DNA of 64,000 bases from a virus: IMG/VR virus record IMGVR_UViG_3300045125_000040, positions 1 to 64,000 of that record; one strand, given 5' to 3'. The position numbers and the translations under genes were made by a program. The first letter of the stretch is position 1; the number at the start of each line of letters is the position of its first letter. Shown piece by piece: positions 3,671-36,099 of the stretch. The notes beneath the pieces were generated by a model. The model was not told where the DNA came from. It was given only the letters and a program-made list of their open reading frames with translations, and made no database searches.

Positions 3671-4200
3671 TGCTCGTGTGTCCTTCTCGTATTCATCTAT
3701 TGCTTTATTGAGTTCTTCCAGAAACTGTTCACCAGTAAGAACCTCTGATTCATCCTTAACTACTTCAAGCGGAAACGCTATAGTTAAGACTAATTGTGGT
3801 TGAAAACTCTCATTAAACCTAATTTGTTTATTCAACACTTTCATCGTCATTTTCCATATACCTTAGATACTCTTTATGCCAGTTTTCTTCTATATCAAAT
3901 TGTTCCATATACTTTAGGTATCGAAGCGACACACCATGTTCATATAGTTTGTCGCTTGAATAGTGAACAGCCCAAGCAATATCACCACTGATCATATTTC
4001 TCAGGCTTTTCCCATTTGTCTCTCTTATACATTACATTCCAAACTGCTTCTTCACAAGAGCAACTGCCGCCTCAAATGCTTCACCAATTTCAAATTCGCT
4101 CAACTTTGCGCCAGGATCAGCTTTTAAAAGAATTTCTTTCATTGCTTCAACAGCAGCAGCCTTGGTTTCTTCTGTAATCTTGAACATATCATTCTCCCTT

Positions 4201-4232: not shown

Positions 4233-4615
4233 ATGGAACTATTACTCTCACTTATCACATCAGGTAGCATTAAGTATATATCAATTCTTGTCCTTGCATT
4301 AGGTCTTGGAGTCACTTTATTTAGAATGCACCTCAACTCATTAGATGCAGAAAGACAAAAAGCACTTCATGAAAACACTATACGCCAATTAGAACAAATT
4401 GTCAAGGATAAAGAACAACAGTTCCAACAGATGAAAGAAATTTATGACGCAAAAGTTGGAACAATGAATAAATTAATTGAAGAAAGAAAGAAATTGAAGA
4501 CAAGTTAAAAGCTGCCGAATCAGAAAGTGAAAAGAAAGTTATTACTGGTCAGGATAAATCAGCATCATCTGTGTTAAAAGATTTATTTAAATCATTAGGA
4601 GGACCAACCTCATGA
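4233..4615 (+). CDS. putative inner-membrane spanin (Rz-like), frameshifted near 4500
   Basis: N-terminal TM segment followed by a long coiled-coil-like stretch; late promoter; immediately precedes a lipoprotein gene. Confidence 0.6.
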
Positions 4616-4881
4616 CCAAGTGGGCGACCATCATAGTGACCAGCCTTCTATTAATTGGATGTCAATGATCAAACACAAATAGTTTCAACATACAAATATA
4701 TGGTAGTTCATCCTGATGAATCAATGTATTACTGTCCTGTTTTGAAACAATTTCCTAACTGGAAAACATTAACAGATGCACAAGTAGCCAAAACAGTAGT
4801 TACATTATATAAAAATAATTTGACTTGTAAAAGTTCTATTGAGTCTATTAGAAAATTTTAAAATGATGCAGATACCATAAC
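4612..4881 (+). CDS. putative outer-membrane spanin lipoprotein (Rz1-like), frameshifted
   Basis: MTKWATIIVTSLLLIGC lipobox, then ..VVHPDESMYYCP..LYKNNLTC..; overlaps the end of the Rz-like gene. Confidence 0.6.
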
Positions 4882-8394: not shown

Positions 8395-8855
8395 TCATAT
8401 CCTCTGCACCAAGAGTCGTGAACAACCATTCCACCTTACTCTCTAACTGTTCAATTGTCAAGCCCCTACAATCAAACTCCAGATTGATATAATCATCATT
8501 TACCTCAAACTGTAGTTTACAAGCATATCCCTCTGTGTATGGCATATTATATTGAGAAATCATAATAATATACATTGATGAAATACCGTTACCAGTTTCA
8601 CTATATATGCACTTCTGATATCCACCATTAGATTTACTAAGATGGTCTTCGAAGAATTTATATCCAGCGGCGGTTAGTTCTTCTCTTTATTCATTCTCTT
8701 TCTAACATTACGAACGAACTCGGGAACTTAGCAAGAAATATATCCTCTCAGCATCAATAGTTCCATAGCAGCAATTCTCTCTTCGATCTCTTGTTCATTC
8801 ATGAATGATCTTCCTTTGAGTCAAGGTGGGGCAGCACCAGCCACCACCATATATA

Positions 8856-18700: not shown

Positions 18701-19538
18701 AAGATCAATGAAGCCTTTCAAAAGGCAGATAAAATCCTGGAGATTATGAAATGAGCAACTGGAAATATACACTCAACTTTCGTGATCTTATCACAGAAGA
18801 AACCCTCAATGAGGATCAGTCAATCATTCGGTGCGAAGGCTATGGCTACACGCTTATCCTCATTCATCAATGGGTTTGATGATAAGGATGATGATTATAT
18901 GGTATATGGAATTGTGGGATGTTTATGAAATGTTAAATGACTCTATTTCTGTGGATGAAATCAATGAGGGTCTGGATGCATTATATGATGCAGCAGATAC
19001 ATATAGAATTTGGATTAAGTGAGGGAGAATAATATGCACATCTTCTTTAAGATTTTCTTTCCTGCTTTTATTGTTGTATGGCTTGCGATTGCAGGAACAG
19101 TAGTGTATTACAAGTATGAGAGAGCATGATCTTATGAGTGGCCTGTGCTGCTTCTGGTGATCCCAAGAGTAAGAGAATGCTTTCAGTATGGTGTGTATAT
19201 TGGCAATCTTCGCACTGTCAATATGAACAGTTACTAATGGAGAATAATATGTCAAAGATTAAGGATATACTTCATAACACTGACTATGACCTGGCGGATG
19301 AGATTACAATTGCTAATCTTCTTTCCTCCTATGATAATATACTTCATAATGAGGCGCATTCTAAACAGCATCCAGATGATGTTGCTTATTATGAAGAAAT
19401 GAAAACCGCCCTTAGAATGGTCATCAATTACTATTCTGTGAATGGTGATTATCTAATTGAAAAACTAATTCAAAATAATAAGGATAAGGTTGCATCCAAA
19501 CTAGCCAAATATCGTATTGCTACTATGGGGGAATAGTA

Positions 19539-19808
19539 ATGAATAAGGAACTAACAATCAAGTCAATTGAGGATGTATTAAGACGCTTTGTTACATTGGA
19601 ACACTATAAGGATAAAAGATATGCATATGGATCAAGTAGAGTATATAATACATATGACATCGCAGAAGAGATTTACAACACAGTGACCAAGGCAGAGACC
19701 AAAGGTCAGACCAACTCATTGACCAACATAGTGACCAACTGTGCGACCAGCGGAGTGACCAAGGCAGGGACCAACCCTAAGACCAACGTCAAGACCAAAA
19801 AGAAATAA
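19539..19808 (+). CDS. hypothetical protein whose 3' half is a 12-bp repeat array (Thr every 4th residue)
   Basis: ORF track; VTKAETKGQTNSLTNIVTNCATSGVTKAGTNPKTNVKTKKK. Confidence 0.6.
   Translation: MNKELTIKSIEDVLRRFVTLEHYKDKRYAYGSSRVYNTYDIAEEIYNTVTKAETKGQTNSLTNIVTNCATSGVTKAGTNPKTNVKTKKK
19685..19798 (+). repeat. 10 x 12-bp phased array with invariant GACCA core
   Basis: GACCA at 19685, 19697, 19709, 19721, 19733, 19745, 19757, 19769, 19781 and 19793. Confidence 0.95.
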
Positions 19809-19842
19809 TTTGCGTAATAATGTTTCATATTTGTTCTCTAGA

Positions 19843-19858
19843 TGTTTCACGTGAAACA
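19843..19858. promoter_or_regulatory. parS: parS (ParB-binding centromere-like site), perfect consensus
   Basis: TGTTTCACGTGAAACA, a 16-bp palindrome identical to the bacterial chromosomal parS consensus, in a non-coding region. Confidence 0.85.
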
Positions 19859-20059
19859 CCTGTGCGTAGTGTGGAACATAGTGCGAACAATGTGCGTATA
19901 TTGTGCGTATATTGTGGGATTATAGTCCATAATAGTGGGAAAATAGGTCAGTATTGCTGAGCTTAATTAAAAACCCCAAAATAAAAATGTTTAGTGCGTA
20001 GTGGTCCGGGTGTCATCAGCCTCCCACAAAGAACCACAGAAGTCAACAGTTAAATATTA

Positions 20060-20068
20060 TTATCCACA
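20060..20068 (+). promoter_or_regulatory. consensus DnaA box
   Basis: TTATCCACA in an AT-rich non-coding context about 200 bp from parS. Confidence 0.5.
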
Positions 20069-20170
20069 ATATTATTTTTCCCCCATAAATTCAGTGAGTT
20101 ACGATGGTTCACGGTGGTTCACTGTTTGTTCTCTCTTGACAATAATGGGGAACTGTGCATCACTGTATAC

Positions 20171-20408
20171 AATTGTGGTCCAATGGTGAAGCTATAGTTT
20201 ACAATCATATGGTCAAGATGACGTTGACATTCATATAGCCAAGCCACAGTTGACATTCGAATGGTTAAGCTAGCGTTGTCATTCATATGGTTAAGGTCAC
20301 GTTGTCATTCCCATAGTCTATAGGACTAGTGAAGTATACAATCAAACTATAACGTGGCCATTGGAATGGTTAAGCTATAGTGTTGTCATACGATATGGTC
20401 TAGCTTGT
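20171..20408 (+). repeat. tandem ~26-bp degenerate repeat array (about 8 units), consensus GTTGWCATTCRWATGGTYAAG-N5
   Basis: Units start at 20197, 20223, 20249, 20275 and 20301 (exact 26-bp period), with degenerate units at 20171, 20354 and 20382. Confidence 0.9.
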
Positions 20409-20569
20409 GTCTGTTTCCATTCCCTATAGTTGCACAAATTGAGAACGATGATATTGCCTGAAATTTGTGCAATTCAAAAATCATATTGCCTAAAATTTGT
20501 GCTTTACTGTTTTCCGCTTTTCGTGCTAGGATTTTTGCATGGTTGGCTCTAATATGAAAGGCTTCCACT

Positions 20570-21409
20570 ATGCTTTACGATTTATCCCGGCTTTCGCCCG
20601 CCTTGCGCTCTGAAGTTGAAAATTCGCCGCAATGGCGTCGCTTTTTTTCCGCTTTCCCGTCGAAAATGGTTGCATTTTCTGGTGATGCAAAAACGGTTAA
20701 AGGCGAAAAACAAGCCTATTTGACGGGAATTCTATACTTAGTTTCGTCTGATATTTCCGGCGCTAACCTTTGTCCTATAGCGAAAATTGCCGCTTGCGAT
20801 TTACCCTGTTTACTTTCGGCGGGACGTGGCGCAATGAATTTCGTTTTCATGTCACGCCTTAGAAAAACACTGTTTTTCCTGCAATACCAGGAAAAAGCAA
20901 TAGCCCTGATTAAACAGGACATATCCCGCCTGGAAAAAACAGCCATGCGTAAAGGCTTTACCTTGGTTTATTCGCTTAAACGGGACAAGCGATATACGCT
21001 TCGAGCGATACGGGATTATTCAATCTTTCCCGCATATCCAATTCTATGATTATTCTAAACTAGTTAATCGCCATAGTCTACCGGGAAACTATGATATAAC
21101 CTTTTCTTATAGTGGTGTCGAATCTTTCGCCAATTTTAACGCAATTGCTGCAATCAAAAACATATGCGTATTGCGGTCGTATTTCGTTCCCGTGAACTAG
21201 TGGACAGCCTTATCAATAATGGCGCTACCTTCGTAATGATATGCCAATTATTGACAGGTGACGAAACCGATTTGACGCTTTCTTGAGCCGCAAGGCGTTA
21301 TCGTGGCGCTTTATGCCAAGGCAAGGCAAAGCGAGACGGAAGCGGCTTTGTAATAGATGAAAATAATCCCATGATAAAATATCCTGAAAAAAATGCTCTT
21401 GCCGCATAA
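20570..21409 (+). CDS. GP88-family protein, frameshifted
   Basis: KTVKGEK, ILYL, NLCP..C..PCL..AGRG, RLNGTSDI, IQFYDYSK, NYDITFSYSG and IAVVF motifs; ends ...KNALAA*. Confidence 0.8.
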
Positions 21410-21478
21410 CCTGCCACAATTTCGCCATAATTTAGGGTTACAGTCTGAAGAATCAAATCTAGCAGAGAGGAAAATCCA

Positions 21479-21733
21479 ATGGTTACGTTTAACGAAAGCA
21501 CCCTGGTAAAGTATCTTGAAACCGCCCCGAACGGCCTTTCCATCGGAGAAGCCTTTGTCAATTGGCAAATCAGCGGCGGGCATTTAACGAAAATTGTTTC
21601 CAATGCTCGCAAGGCTGGCCACTATATTGTGAAGCAATGGCGTATCAATCCGGTAACAAAACGCCGCTATGCCCGTTACCATATGGTCCCCGTGACTTGC
21701 GCCGCTTTGCGCTATATTAACGGCAAGGCGTAA
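21479..21733 (+). CDS. small winged-helix-like putative DNA-binding protein
   Basis: ORF with GAGG RBS; LVKYLE..SIGEAF..LTKIVSNARKAGHYI..NPVTKRRYARY pattern resembles phage HTH proteins. Confidence 0.55.
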   Translation: MVTFNESTLVKYLETAPNGLSIGEAFVNWQISGGHLTKIVSNARKAGHYIVKQWRINPVTKRRYARYHMVPVTCAALRYINGKA

Positions 21734-21790
21734 CAATAGCAGGGCGGGAACTAATCCCGCCCGGTTTCTCTCTAATGAAAGGTTAAGCTT

Positions 21791-22035
21791 ATGTCATACA
21801 ATGGTTGGACAAATTATGAAACGTGGCGGGTCAATCTAGAATTGATTGACGGTTTGCGCCCTGGTGATTTTACTGAAAACGTAGGGCGAATTGAAAGACG
21901 CAATTAAGGAATATTGCTTTTCATATCTAGAAGATAATGCCAGCGGCGGCATTAGACTTGGCAATGGCGTTTCTGTCCAATGTAAACTGGGATGAAATTG
22001 TTCGCAATCTAATGGCGGAAGAAAACGCCGCCTGA
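21791..22035 (+). CDS. conserved small phage early protein (YNGWTNYETW family), frameshifted
   Basis: MSYNGWTNYETWRVNLE...FLSNVNWDEIVRNLMAEENAA*; not whole in the ORF track. Confidence 0.7.
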
Positions 22036-22047
22036 TAGTAAACGGGA

Positions 22048-22075
22048 ACGGGCAGGTTTAGGCTTGCCCGTTTCT
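22048..22075 (+). terminator. intrinsic terminator closing the GP88 cassette
   Basis: ACGGGCAGG-TTTAGG-CTTGCCCGT followed by TTCTT. Confidence 0.6.
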
Positions 22076-25000
22076 TGTTGTCTCTATAGTCTATAAAAAC
22101 GCTAGACCAAAGCGGCCTTGTGTAGTTTACAATTGGGTCCCATCGCACGGGACCCGAAGTACCGGTACCTTACTGTTTTATTGAGATTCCGGACCCCCTC
22201 CCCACTTTTCCTACAGACAACATGGGTTCAAAAAATTTTTCCGCCAAAAATTTTGACTTTCTAAGGTCGCACCCACCCCAGAGACTTAATAGCACGGATT
22301 AACCTATCCCTCTGAGCAACTGTTTCTTCCCTAGTGTTATCACAGACATCTACCCAATGATTATTAAAGTAAACACGAAAGACATGCAGATTAAACCCAT
22401 TATTAACCACAGGAGCAACGGATTGAATATAATCCAGATTAATCACTGTTCCATCTTTTAGTTCAAAACCATTCATTAGAAACTTCCTCTCATGATCACT
22501 TCTGTATCGCTACTACTGGACCGTTGTCATTAAACTGAGTCAAAAAGCGAATAAACTCAATATCCGATACATAGTCTCTATCTGCGCCATCCCCGTCTAC
22601 ACCGATAATTAATGCCTTACCAGCGAAGGGTTGTTCGTAGTTAAGAAAATTAAAAGATAATTCTCATTGAGTAGACCAAGATCATCTACATACATGAAAT
22701 CATGCCTACTCTGACCCCATCAATGTATTTGCAACCAATGATCTCCTTGATATTTTTACCAGCAATGTCAATCTCTTCAATCGTCTTGTTCTTCGGATCA
22801 ATCAGTATAGCTTTCATTTTGTTTCCTTTGCTGCGTTGTCTATAGATTCAACGTTAATCTTTGGTTCAAACCCCTTCATTAGAAACTTCCTCTCATAATG
22901 CAAATACCATCACTGGATACTGGAATCCAACTACCACCTTTGAAATACAAGCATCATACTTCTGCTTTATCTGTTACTCTAGCAGATTCTGTACAAAATG
23001 CTACTGTTAGAATAAAAGCGTAGCCACTACTGCTATTGAAATAATTACAATCTTTTCAACATCAATCTTTTCCATTTTTATGATCCCCATGTTCATAACA
23101 AGTCCAGCGATAACCAGTGTCACTTGGCCAGCCACAACCAGCATCCTTGAAACATCCCGGTTCATCACACATACCGAGAAGAGGCTTTAGAGATTCAATC
23201 TCTCTTCTCTGACCTTTGCTTTGATTGCATCCATATTCTCAATATCAAACTCATTGGTAATAGTCATACCACCTGCATCACATAGTGGCACATAACGCAT
23301 CTGGACCAAATCCAAGACGATCATAGATTAGATATCTGTAAGAACCTCCTCTTTGGCATGATCCACAATATGCTTTATTGCCCACTCCGGTGACAGCAAG
23401 TTTCATTTCATATGGACACTTATCTGCCATTTCATCAAGATTGCTATTGGCTTCTTTCCTCAACTTATCCAGATCTTGACTGGATTCCCACCAAGTCATT
23501 TCGTTTTCGTCAGTCATCCTTTTCTCCTCACATTTGGTGTATTCCACGGCAATAAACATGCTGGCAAGTAAAGTGAGCCAAAACTCATTCCGTAATTAAC
23601 ATGATGTGTATGTACGCACTTATAGTGCAAAACATTCCTAAACCTTGGACGCCCCCACCACCGTGCAGCGTGGAAAGAGGGCATAGCAATATCATAGGGA
23701 ACTTTCAAAGTATAATCACTCATCATTCACCTTCCGTCTCTATATACAAACCTTCCTCTATATCATAGATCTTTATGTTCTGTGAGTTCATGAAAGATTC
23801 AATATCCTTGGAATTATCAATAAGCTTTGGCCATGGATTATGCTTGTATTTCTTTGAATCGTGACCCGCTGACATCTTGACGCTGAAGACATTTCTCTGC
23901 CTTTCTCCATTCCTCAATAAAGCATTCTGGCGTCGCAGTAGTTACTACTGTCGCACCATTCCATCCTCTATCCCATACTAATAGTTTCATTTCAACGCCC
24001 CGTTTCTGTGATAACATTTGCTGCTTTGCGAATATCACCTGCTGTTAAAACCCTACCCCAAAACCCGCAAATAATTGTATCATCAGGATCAACTGAAGGA
24101 TCATCTAAAAGTTGAACATACTGAGCAAAGGGCTTTAGTGCTTCTCTTGAGATTTTCTTTATCTTTCTGTAGCCGTGCGTTTGTCATCCGCAACTGGATT
24201 AACTCTTTCATAGCTTCTGCATTAATGGGGCTACCATGTATGTTATATCCGCCATCAGAACCATCAGAAGCGTCATCCCAATCAATTGAGTTGTTCCAAT
24301 CTGAACCATTTGAAAATTTACGCTCCGGGTCAATATCAACAGTCATAGTTTCTTCAAAGCCTCCAGAACTATTCTAATTTCTTTAGCATTCAGACAAAAA
24401 TCGAGTCTACCGCACCCTCTAGCATTGAGTTCTTCTAGATATATATTGAAATACGATATCAAGTTATCAATTTCTTTACCTTTGCTCGTATCCGTTCCAC
24501 AGTTCTTTATAGATTTCTTTTATCAGTCATCTTTATGTTCCTCAAAGTATAATCACTCACAGACTCTCTAACTCCTTTAGAAGTATCTCAAGGTCTTCAC
24601 GTTTAAAATATAATTGATCATATTTAACATGTTTATTTTTATCAATATACTTTATTGATTCATTGATATAATCTTTTAGAAAATCTAATGCATCAGCGTC
24701 AGTATATGCTTCCCACAGTTGTTCATAGATTTCTTTATCAGTCATTATCTTCCTCAATTAGTTTGCGGCAACGCTTATACCAGTCATTATGTTGCCACTT
24801 GACCTTATCGTGTGACATTTCATAATAGTCATTGGCAATAAACTGAACCAACTCCTCATACTTTTGAAGTCGTTTGATTTCTTTTTCTTGTTCTGTAACA
24901 TGGATATCACAATTTAGTTGTTCAATGCTCATTTTTTATCTTCATCCTTATTCCGTTGAAAGTTCCTAGCACGGATTAATCGCCAATACATTGGAAGTGA

Positions 25001-27112: not shown

Positions 27113-27186
27113 GCTCTTGTAGTTAAATGGTATAACAGTTGATTAGTAATCATCTATTGGCAGTTCGATTCTGTCCAAGAGCACCA
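27113..27186 (+). tRNA. tRNA-Thr (anticodon reads AGT; could be TGT with a read error)
   Basis: GCTCTTG/CAAGAGC acceptor stem, ACCA end, GTTCGATTC T-loop, anticodon loop TTAGTAA. Confidence 0.85.
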
Positions 27187-27195
27187 TTTTAATAT

Positions 27196-27269
27196 TTCGG
27201 AGTCGTCTAATGGTAGGACTCTAGATTTTGACTCTAGCAATGGTGGTTCGACCCCATCCTCCGAAACCA
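27196..27269 (+). tRNA. tRNA-Gln(TTG)
   Basis: TTCGGAG/CTCCGAA acceptor stem, CTAGA-TTTTGAC-TCTAG anticodon arm, GGTTCGAC T-loop, CCA end. Confidence 0.9.
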
Positions 27270-32853: not shown

Positions 32854-32980
32854 TTCGCCTTCATCACGGTAACATCTGTCTTGGGTTTGGTATCCAGATT
32901 AAAGATGCCGTATTGAGTTACGGTTCGAATAACCATTAGTTGAAAGACTATAAAACAGGTGTTACTTTGATGAAGGCGAA
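32854..32980 (+). ncRNA. putative structured RNA closed by a ~25-bp stem related to the tmRNA acceptor/IVS helix
   Basis: TTCGCCTTCATCACGGTAACATCTGT pairs with ACAGGTGTTACTTTGATGAAGGCGAA; internal hairpins. Confidence 0.55.
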
Positions 32981-32989
32981 TAAATAGAA

Positions 32990-33276
32990 TTGCCGAGGTC
33001 GTTGAGAGGAACGACATAGACACTGAGGACGTGGATTTGCGACTCCACCGCCTCCACCACAGTAACATTGGTTCCAAGGTTGGAATAAACTTGGGTAATA
33101 GCTTCTCCAAACGTCCAGTGTTACTTTGATGGGGGCGAACTAGGATCGACTGGTGTAGTAAGGGTTCAAGGAGACCATAGGCAAATATAGGTGCTAACGA
33201 TAACTTTGCACCATTTGATTACGCTCTAGCAGCATAATCATTGGGGTGGCGACTTCCCTAGAAACAGAAAAGTCGC
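32990..33276 (+). ncRNA. ssrA: circularly permuted (two-piece, alphaproteobacterial-type) tmRNA
   Basis: Acceptor piece ends ...GCGACTCCACCGCCTCCACCA (33059); hairpin intervening sequence; coding piece starts GGGGGCGAACTAGGATCGAC (33131); tag ANDNFAPFDYALAA* at 33193-33237. Confidence 0.92.
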
Positions 33277-33302
33277 AAATATTATGAAAGGATATACCAT
33301 GC

Positions 33303-35631: not shown

Positions 35632-36099
35632 ATGGTCATAAAAACAATTGGTAAACCATCGCATACGACTTTACAATTTGTTAAAAAATCAGCAAATTTT
35701 TATGCGAAATATCTTCTTAGGAATAAACTATTTTATAATGTATTTCTAACCATAAAATTTGAAAAATTTGAACGTGGTTCTTGTGATTATGCATATTGTG
35801 ATTGGACAGATGATAATCATCAAGCGAGAGAGTTTACAACAACAATTGACAATCGTCTTAATGAGAAAGAGACTTTATTGGCTCTTGCGCATGAAATGGT
35901 TCACGTCAAACAATATGCAAAAGGTGAATTAAAGGATATTTTCAGACCAACCAGAATGGTTAAATGGCAAGCGAAAATATCTTCATGAAGAGATAGATTA
36001 TTGGGAGCAACCATGGGAAATTGAAGCTTATGGACGTGAAAAGGTCTTTATATAAAGTTTATGAAACATTTAAAAGATGGCGATCTGGAAGATTTTTAA
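35632..36099 (+). CDS. zinc metallopeptidase-like protein (HExxH)
   Basis: ALAHEMVHVKQY..GEL, YWEQPWEIEAYG; late promoter TATAAATA at 35597-35604. Confidence 0.75.

Follow-up and report, generated by a model that had tools for sequence, protein, structure and literature searches.

Several mobile elements are known to carry, on their own DNA, binding sites for proteins that serve another replicon. The virulent Bacillus phage phi29 makes use, via Spo0J, of five host parS sites, with a role in trapping the phage genome in the spore (PMC2731898). T5-like phages present about eight DnaA boxes in their pre-early "injection stop signal" (iss) region, which is untranslated, dense in repeats and described as "reminiscent of oriC" (Davison, bioRxiv 10.1101/866236); its mechanism has been put forward as a hypothesis only, and the region is not regarded as the origin of the phage (10.1101/866236). 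The orphan parS sites of SGI1 hijack the ParABS system of IncC plasmids (PMC10954446), and CtrA-binding sites have been described in phages of Alphaproteobacteria (PMC9437464). The locus considered here lies in the first 64,000 bases (the window, that is, the whole stretch of DNA analysed) of the 158,790-bp IMG/VR record IMGVR_UViG_3300045125_000040, a T4-like phage. It is an untranslated hub of about 760 bp (19809-20569), immediately upstream of a gene of the GP88 family (PF17338), that carries an exact chromosomal-type parS and an exact DnaA box, and for which a preliminary description had proposed the loading of host ParB and DnaA.

The palindrome TGTTTCACGTGAAACA agreed at all 16 positions with the published parS consensus TGTTNCACGTGAAACA, in which one position is known to be degenerate. 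It was found as a single copy in the window and in the whole record, the runner-up (at 35897) having two mismatches, and an exact palindromic 16-mer would be expected by chance only about 1.5e-5 times per window. The DnaA box TTATCCACA was also exact. Both sites were thus confirmed where the preliminary description had placed them, although the DnaA box taken alone is within chance (about 0.5 exact 9-mers expected per 64 kb), and its matches at one mismatch were at background (34 vs. 25.5 expected). The absence of a ParA/ParB gene, previously stated for the window, could be extended to the entire 158.8-kb record, since six-frame searches revealed no ParB_N (E≤1), HTH_ParB (E≤1) or ParA-type AAA_31 (E≤0.1) domain. 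Because the phage has no detectable ParB, any protein binding this parS would have to be the ParB of the host.

The first evidence that the site is more than an isolated match came from other phages carrying GP88, a family with more than 570 and more than 587 matches in two collections, the latter being IMG/VR. Two sets of 80 loci were considered, one from metagenomes (set A, 408 kb) and one from IMG/VR (set B, 805 kb), and the frequency of parS was compared with that of 839 palindromes of identical half-site composition. In both sets, parS ranked at the top of the 840 palindromes. Set A contained one exact site (L376) and one with a single mismatch, TGTTTCACGTGGAACA (L438), while none of the 839 controls had an exact match or reached two matches at ≤1 mismatch (control mean 0.007). 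Set B contained four sites at ≤1 mismatch (two in L581, separated by 31 bp, and two in L615) while the controls averaged 0.013 and none exceeded 2, and in addition TGTTCCACGTGAAACT was present in L599. All six matches at ≤1 mismatch lie within 3 kb upstream of GP88, and they represent four independent lineages after de-replication. The sole variant at this threshold, TGTTTCACGTGGAACA, is changed at the degenerate position of the consensus, and the site is still at the universal consensus in loci whose GP88 proteins are only 45-60% identical. Moreover, loci L376, L438/L615, L581 and L599 have no gene in common with the window except GP88, which argues that the binder is a host protein rather than a phage protein travelling with the site. 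A search for additional ParB half-sites around parS in seven loci yielded five vs. three expected, which is not significant.

A second line of evidence was derived from the sighting of three perfect DnaA boxes within 220 bp of the parS of L599, after which the boxes were counted over the 160 GP88 loci, with 300 shuffled 9-mers as a control. A total of 65 exact boxes was found vs. about 11 expected (roughly sixfold), and 15 loci, corresponding to 11 independent lineages, contained at least two, typically three to seven boxes with a spacing of 11-12 or 21 bp. Their position was equally specific: relative to the start of GP88, the density per 10 kb was 5.07 between -1000 and -500, 1.5 between -500 and 0, 0 inside the gene and 0.04-0.4 elsewhere, and the box of the window, at -510, falls at the -500 boundary of the bin in which the family-wide density peaks. 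The cultured Limnohabitans phage DC31 (L647, PQ492658.1) has five perfect boxes (three forward and two reverse, locus 1037-1154) within a 930-bp untranslated gap that heads the GP88-containing operon. Judging from these sequence comparisons, parS and the DnaA box have both been selectively retained ahead of GP88 in many phages that are unrelated to one another.

A further disposition was observed in L411, where six to seven DnaA boxes in the same orientation (3990-4100, with 11-12 or 21-bp spacing and GATC clusters nearby) are located upstream of an early operon that includes GP88, within a divergent intergenic region of 1.2 kb.

These observations could be integrated in a model to which we assign an even chance, in which the hub would be a docking site for host ParB and DnaA that couples the phage genome to the handling of the host chromosome. 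Host ParB is favored over a phage protein because the universal consensus is kept, no DNA-binding gene travels with the site, and GP88 itself is modeled as an enzyme. In this model, the hub combines phage-specific arrays (of 12-bp GACCA units, 11-bp GTG units and 26-bp iterons), probably bound by a small DNA-binding protein encoded next to GP88, with the sites for ParB and DnaA. Early in infection, host ParB dimers would first assemble at parS and, once closed into CTP clamps, spread over the neighboring genes, while DnaA would occupy its box, giving rise to a host-type nucleoprotein complex on phage DNA. Such a complex would tie the phage genome to the host chromosome machinery, so that a genome that is waiting or developing slowly would be retained and positioned, as in the case of phi29 with Spo0J, and the rising number of phage copies would also draw ParB and DnaA off the host chromosome. 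Tethering, as proposed for T5, would be another possible outcome of docking.

A number of observations weigh against this docking model. The hub has just one parS and one DnaA box, with no cluster of closely spaced exact boxes, and its DnaA-box matches at ≤2 mismatches (four in 761 bp) are close to the genome average; the possibility that the 11-bp GTG array consists of weak DnaA boxes was rejected, as its matches at ≤2 mismatches were at the genome background. Among GP88 loci, parS is present in only about 4% and the DnaA box in about 14%. T4-type phages have a strictly lytic cycle and, as a rule, circularly permuted genomes, so that a role in first-entering DNA or a plasmid-like role is not obvious here, and T4-type packaging makes a fixed first-entering end unlikely. 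Finally, the clade does not need parS, since the site is missing both from the corresponding hub of the closest relative (G001, locus L008), even at three mismatches, and, at ≤1 mismatch, from 50 contigs whose large terminase (TerL) is 74-91% identical, among them three near-complete genomes of 146, 125 and 162 kb; the five largest of these relatives lack it at ≤2 mismatches too. At the latter threshold parS was not found either in the named T4-like relatives phiN3, phiM12, Melnitz and HTVC008M. Absence from syntenic relatives, set beforehand as a point on which the idea could fall, thus counts in part against it, as the site is missing from G001 and the 50 TerL relatives and yet recurs upstream of GP88 in other phages. 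The earlier proposal of host ParB/DnaA loading is partly supported: both motifs are enriched at specific positions upstream of GP88 in many lineages, without a phage ParB, but parS is not conserved in the clade and the DnaA box is single here.

This distribution leads to the explanation that best competes with docking, namely, that the sites came with the GP88 genes from another phage and have no role in this T4-like phage, or are chance matches, which we consider rather unlikely, although it has to be weighed seriously. The block from 19.63 to 22.49 kb is foreign in composition: its G+C content (GC) is 40-50% vs. 36% elsewhere (35.6% for the genome), and GATC is absent over 2,864 bp (window 19631-22493) vs. 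3.5 per kb genome-wide, so that the sites could be inherited baggage. The GATC-free interval is weak as stand-alone evidence, for the genome contains three GATC-free stretches above 2.4 kb, among which it comes only second (the others being 70267-73607 and 143172-145647). That both sites are single, that parS is missing in the rest of the clade and that the DnaA box alone is within chance would also fit a passenger. In contrast, the chance expectation of the exact 16-mer given above is too low for a fortuitous match to be attractive, a full 16/16 match is rarely retained by a decaying relic, and the distances of the two sites from GP88 (-727 and -510) are typical of the family, other lineages showing a 20- to 60-fold enrichment there.

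Comparison with relatives of the hub showed what does accompany the sites. The nucleotide identity to G001 is 85-95% up to base 19678, where homology ends, and at the same place G001 has an analogous 1.25-kb untranslated hub, with an 11-bp array, TTTGTTCY repeats, a GACCTTT array (a variant of the GACCA array) that runs across a stop codon, and five inverted 26-bp units like those of the window. L233, whose GP88 is 67% identical to that of the window, has an array of nine TGACCAAC units that runs past the end of an open reading frame (ORF), GTTTATGTAAAC repeats, and ATTGCCT repeats and GCTTTAC upstream of GP88 at the same distance as in the window, together with a 14/16 parS-like sequence, TGTTTCACGTGAAAAT, adjoining a GTGTGGC array that resembles the GTG array of the window. 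L283, whose DNA polymerase identifies it as a T4-like relative, also carries a homolog of the winged-helix gene described below; there, CGTGAAACA-AAT-AGTTTCACGTGAAAT abuts a TGACCAAC array in non-coding DNA, again with a 14/16 parS-like site, and GTTTATGTAAAC is also present. A scan for the GACCAA-array pattern returned mostly unrelated repeats, L283 being the sole true hub homolog among its matches. The parS-like core thus recurs beside the same arrays in L233 and L283. The homologs with parS or with a 14-15/16 site are L376, L438/L615, L581, L599, L233 and L283, and, by its distribution, parS is an accessory of a mobile cassette and not a conserved T4-like feature.

The features of the locus are collected in Table 1. 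Tandem Repeats Finder and a repeat finder were used to detect the arrays, whose motifs are almost restricted to this locus genome-wide. The 12-, ~11- and 26-bp arrays of the preliminary description are real, but the first falls within the 3' end of the preceding ORF. It is nevertheless a DNA-level repeat, because its counterparts in L233, L283 and L008 run across ORF ends or are found outside them, and it is probably a protein-binding array. Four further GACCA cores with exact 12-bp spacing were seen at window positions 4602-4642, overlapping a lipoprotein-signal-like short ORF start, and may be due to chance. The stretch 19809-20569 has no ORF longer than 62 amino acids (aa), no transfer RNA (tRNA) and no Rfam match at E≤1, which led to the rejection of a structured RNA and bears out the claim of about 750 bp of non-coding DNA.

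Table 1. Features of the hub, the adjoining genes and the split genes of the record (positions are those of the window unless indicated).
Feature	Position	Strand	Remarks
Small ORF, 89 aa	19539..19808	+	N-terminal 52 aa kept in G001 (71% identity over residues 1-52 only)
Ten G-ACC-A(A/G) cores, 12-bp period	19676..19798	+	Overlays 3' end of ORF 19539-19808
ATGTTTCA half-site-like motif, then TTTGTTCTCT (first of two copies)	19820-19839	+	
Exact chromosomal-type parS TGTTTCACGTGAAACA	19843-19858	no strand	16/16 match, -727 from GP88
Phased GTGCG/GTGGG array, 10-11-bp period, ~8 units	19860..19945	+	GTGGAAC half-site variant at 19871
AT-rich tract with exact DnaA box TTATCCACA at 20060-20068	20049-20090	+	Flanked by ATATTATT direct repeats
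GGTTCAC x2, 10-bp period (20101-20122), second TTTGTTCTCT copy, then TTGACA	20101..20140	+	
26-bp iteron-like units GTTGWCATTC-ATATGGTTAAGC	20183..20403	+	5 tandem (20183-20310, written out as GTTGWCATTC..ATGGTTAAGC), then 2 copies at 20354-20403
ATTGCCTRAAATTTGTGC x2, then GCTTTAC	20448..20507	+	Putative operator and -35 region of GP88 operon
GP88-family gene (PF17338), full length	20570..21408	+	≥4 frame changes needed to match homologs
Small winged-helix (HTH_39-like) protein, 84 aa	21479..21733	+	Kept in L283 and G001 cassettes
Small ORF, frameshifted here	21791..22035	+	Homolog in G001
T-run hairpins, read by eye	~21742-21770 and 22047-22080		Mark cassette end
Split genes in record (outside window)	96653-97800 and 153.7-156.5 kb		gp23 and DNA polymerase; indel errors

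The hub combines phased arrays and 26-bp iterons (five to seven) with an AT-rich tract that contains a consensus DnaA box, and so also recalls replication origins of the iteron type (P1 oriR/RK2 oriV), to which parS would be attached as a centromere. Homologous hubs with five to seven tightly phased DnaA boxes in divergent intergenic regions, and a cumulative GC-skew minimum at 15-25 kb, agree with this notion. We regard it as improbable. The minimum is broad and the skew tracks gene orientation, and the GC-skew check suggested earlier was rejected as evidence for an origin. No recognized Rep-type initiator adjoins the hub: GP88 appears enzyme-like (weak Z scores of 5-6) and the 84-aa winged-helix protein, a possible DNA binder, is not a recognized Rep; the iterons are kept in the nearest relative only, and the DnaA boxes of T5 are thought not to be an origin. 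T4-type phages, in addition, begin replication from R-loops and recombination intermediates.

The genes downstream of the hub provide a context for the sites. GP88 was predicted with a confident structure (pLDDT 86.5), whose top structural neighbors (VIA) were nearly all radical-SAM proteins (PFL-activase, QueE, NifB), with weak Z scores of 5-6.2, and the protein has three conserved cysteines in a Cx7Cx3C arrangement; Foldseek gave no match for the fold at E≤1e-3. From the predicted model, GP88 is probably a divergent radical-SAM-like enzyme. In the podoviruses of Pelagibacter, Puniceispirillum and Mesorhizobium (alphaproteobacterial Autographiviridae), it is among the first three genes (gene 1-3) from the left end of the genome, which places it in very early DNA. 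The small winged-helix protein is a candidate binder of the phage-specific arrays; its only relative found in IMG/VR was that of the L283 contig. Arrays and conserved winged-helix gene together suggest a second, phage-encoded layer of control. The T-run hairpins at the cassette end (Table 1) were read by eye, as the terminator scan covered positions 19300-21400. The best reading of this gene order is that the hub heads a horizontally mobile early-gene cassette, made of GP88, the winged-helix gene and the small ORF.

The presence of a winged-helix gene in the window, L283 and G001 raises the alternative that the palindrome is an operator for that protein, or for an unrecognized phage protein, its identity with parS being incidental. 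Palindromes of the same build occur in related hubs (TGTTTACGTAAACA in G001, and GTTTATGTAAAC in G001, L233 and L283), G001 has a GTTTAC box after a TTTGTTCT motif at the place occupied by parS in the window, and the T4-like Pseudoalteromonas phage XG4 carries at least ten GTTTCAYRTGAAAC sites beside TATAATACT-like promoter-like boxes, the latter being a further point that the docking model has to face. However, the operator of a phage protein should change along with the protein that reads it, while the site stays at the universal host consensus across divergent phages that have only GP88 in common with the window (L376, L438/L615, L581 and L599), and GP88 has a predicted fold that is enzyme-like and not DNA-binding, all of which makes this alternative quite improbable.

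As for XG4 itself (vB_Psh_XG4, PP712099.1; 69-92 kb, loci L133-L140), its intergenic GTTTCAYRTGAAAC copies, which differ from parS by a single central change, occupy mirror-symmetric positions (sums of 160,874), suggesting a ~23-kb inverted duplication or an assembly artefact, and the record is marked "UNVERIFIED_ORG".

Exact parS sites were also looked at across IMG/VR. An enrichment at that scale was uninformative, with at least 119 stretches containing an exact parS vs. at least 120 containing a control palindrome of the same composition, and in the reverse test GP88 was found in none of the 119 exact-parS loci among the matches listed. Among the listed IMG/VR loci (L009-L070), ParB_N was missing from 48 of the 50 virus contigs that have one exact parS, several of them being at least 90% complete. 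Orphan parS sites may thus be common in viral contigs, but the control palindrome was equally frequent among the matches listed, and these contigs bear no relation to the GP88 cassette. Two cases can be mentioned. L058 (IMGVR_UViG_3300048065_000295), a phage fragment that shares homologous genes with the 131.7-133.4 kb region of the genome studied here, has an exact parS (2699-2714) between the stop of a small ORF and an intrinsic terminator, after an endonuclease-VII-like HNH gene. In the small, low-GC contig L065 (IMGVR_UViG_3300025889_001754), the exact parS (8564-8579) precedes a gene start by about 24 nt, a placement like that of an operator.

Regarding the phage, it is a T4-like myovirus, as previously stated: its large terminase shares 57% identity with those of the Sinorhizobium phages phiN3 and phiM12, and its sheath protein matches the T4-type family. 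The record is linear, and a search for end repeats found none. The host is probably alphaproteobacterial, as supported by a two-piece (permuted) transfer-messenger RNA of alphaproteobacterial type (window 32936-33279, plus strand; RF01849, 72.8 bits). Genes for tRNA-Thr and tRNA-Gln (27113-27269) and for tRNA-Arg (33898) were also noted. The assembly is rich in insertion/deletion (indel) errors, with the genes for the major capsid protein (gp23) and DNA polymerase each broken across three frames, and only 14 ORFs of at least 300 aa were present across 158.8 kb; an alternative genetic code was rejected as the reason for the short ORFs, the indels being the cause. Statements based on ORFs are unreliable on this account, and the description of an otherwise gene-dense genome cannot be judged, even though the ~760 bp without a credible gene stand.

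If docking is correct, its interest would go beyond this genome. More than 15 independent phage lineages, from freshwater and marine samples, have selectively retained both site types in front of one widespread early gene; they include one T4-like phage and one cultured phage-host pair, that of Limnohabitans phage DC31, a system in which the idea could be tested. A single 16-mer thus leads to a general question, namely, whether recruitment or sequestration of the host initiator and centromere-binding protein early in infection is routine among lytic phages. Short cis elements able to work with the ParB and DnaA of any host would be offered as well. A broader and more tentative proposal, which we hold to be possible but doubtful, is that aquatic lytic phages, T4-like ones included, share a mobile module of the early region that acts as a host chromosome mimic, bearing chromosomal parS and/or clusters of DnaA boxes while encoding no protein partner for them, so that the genome would be handled by the initiator and partition proteins of the host. 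Were this true, the module would allow the carriage of a waiting genome by host factors only, or the sequestration of DnaA and ParB, arresting the host cell cycle. To our knowledge, the use of host ParB by a virulent phage has been documented for phi29 and spore entrapment only. Our literature search found no report of a chromosomal parS in T4-like phages, nor of its GP88-linked enrichment, in agreement with the earlier remark that this had not been described for T4-like lytic phages, although the parS sites of phi29 and the DnaA boxes of T5 temper the novelty.

How the locus compares with these systems can now be considered. The CtrA-binding sites of alphaproteobacterial phages are likewise sites for a host cell-cycle regulator that link phage development to the host cycle, but they concern another host protein and are placed in the promoters of specific phage genes; no TTAA-N7-TTAA was noticed in the hub by eye, no pattern search having been run. 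SGI1, as the phage described here, is a mobile element without ParAB that carries parS for the partition proteins of another replicon, although it is an integrative mobilizable island and not a phage, and the ParB involved is that of a plasmid rather than a chromosomal one. The likeness to T5 is found in a large untranslated stretch, dense in direct and inverted repeats and palindromes, with consensus DnaA boxes and adjoining the earliest genes, and the hub, with its DnaA box beside the GP88 cassette, has in this respect the make-up of a T5-type pre-early (iss) region. In T5, however, the boxes are paired in long terminal repeats, there is a defined first-entering end and no parS has been reported, whereas here one box and a parS are found in a headful-type genome. 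The closest parallel is phi29, likewise lytic and devoid of a ParB of its own, whose genome bears the chromosomal-type parS of its host. In phi29 there are five sites, the host partition protein acts on them and a role in the spore has been demonstrated, while the hub, known from sequence alone, has a single parS, in a T4-like phage with a probable non-sporulating alphaproteobacterial host, embedded in a repeat array that also holds a DnaA box.

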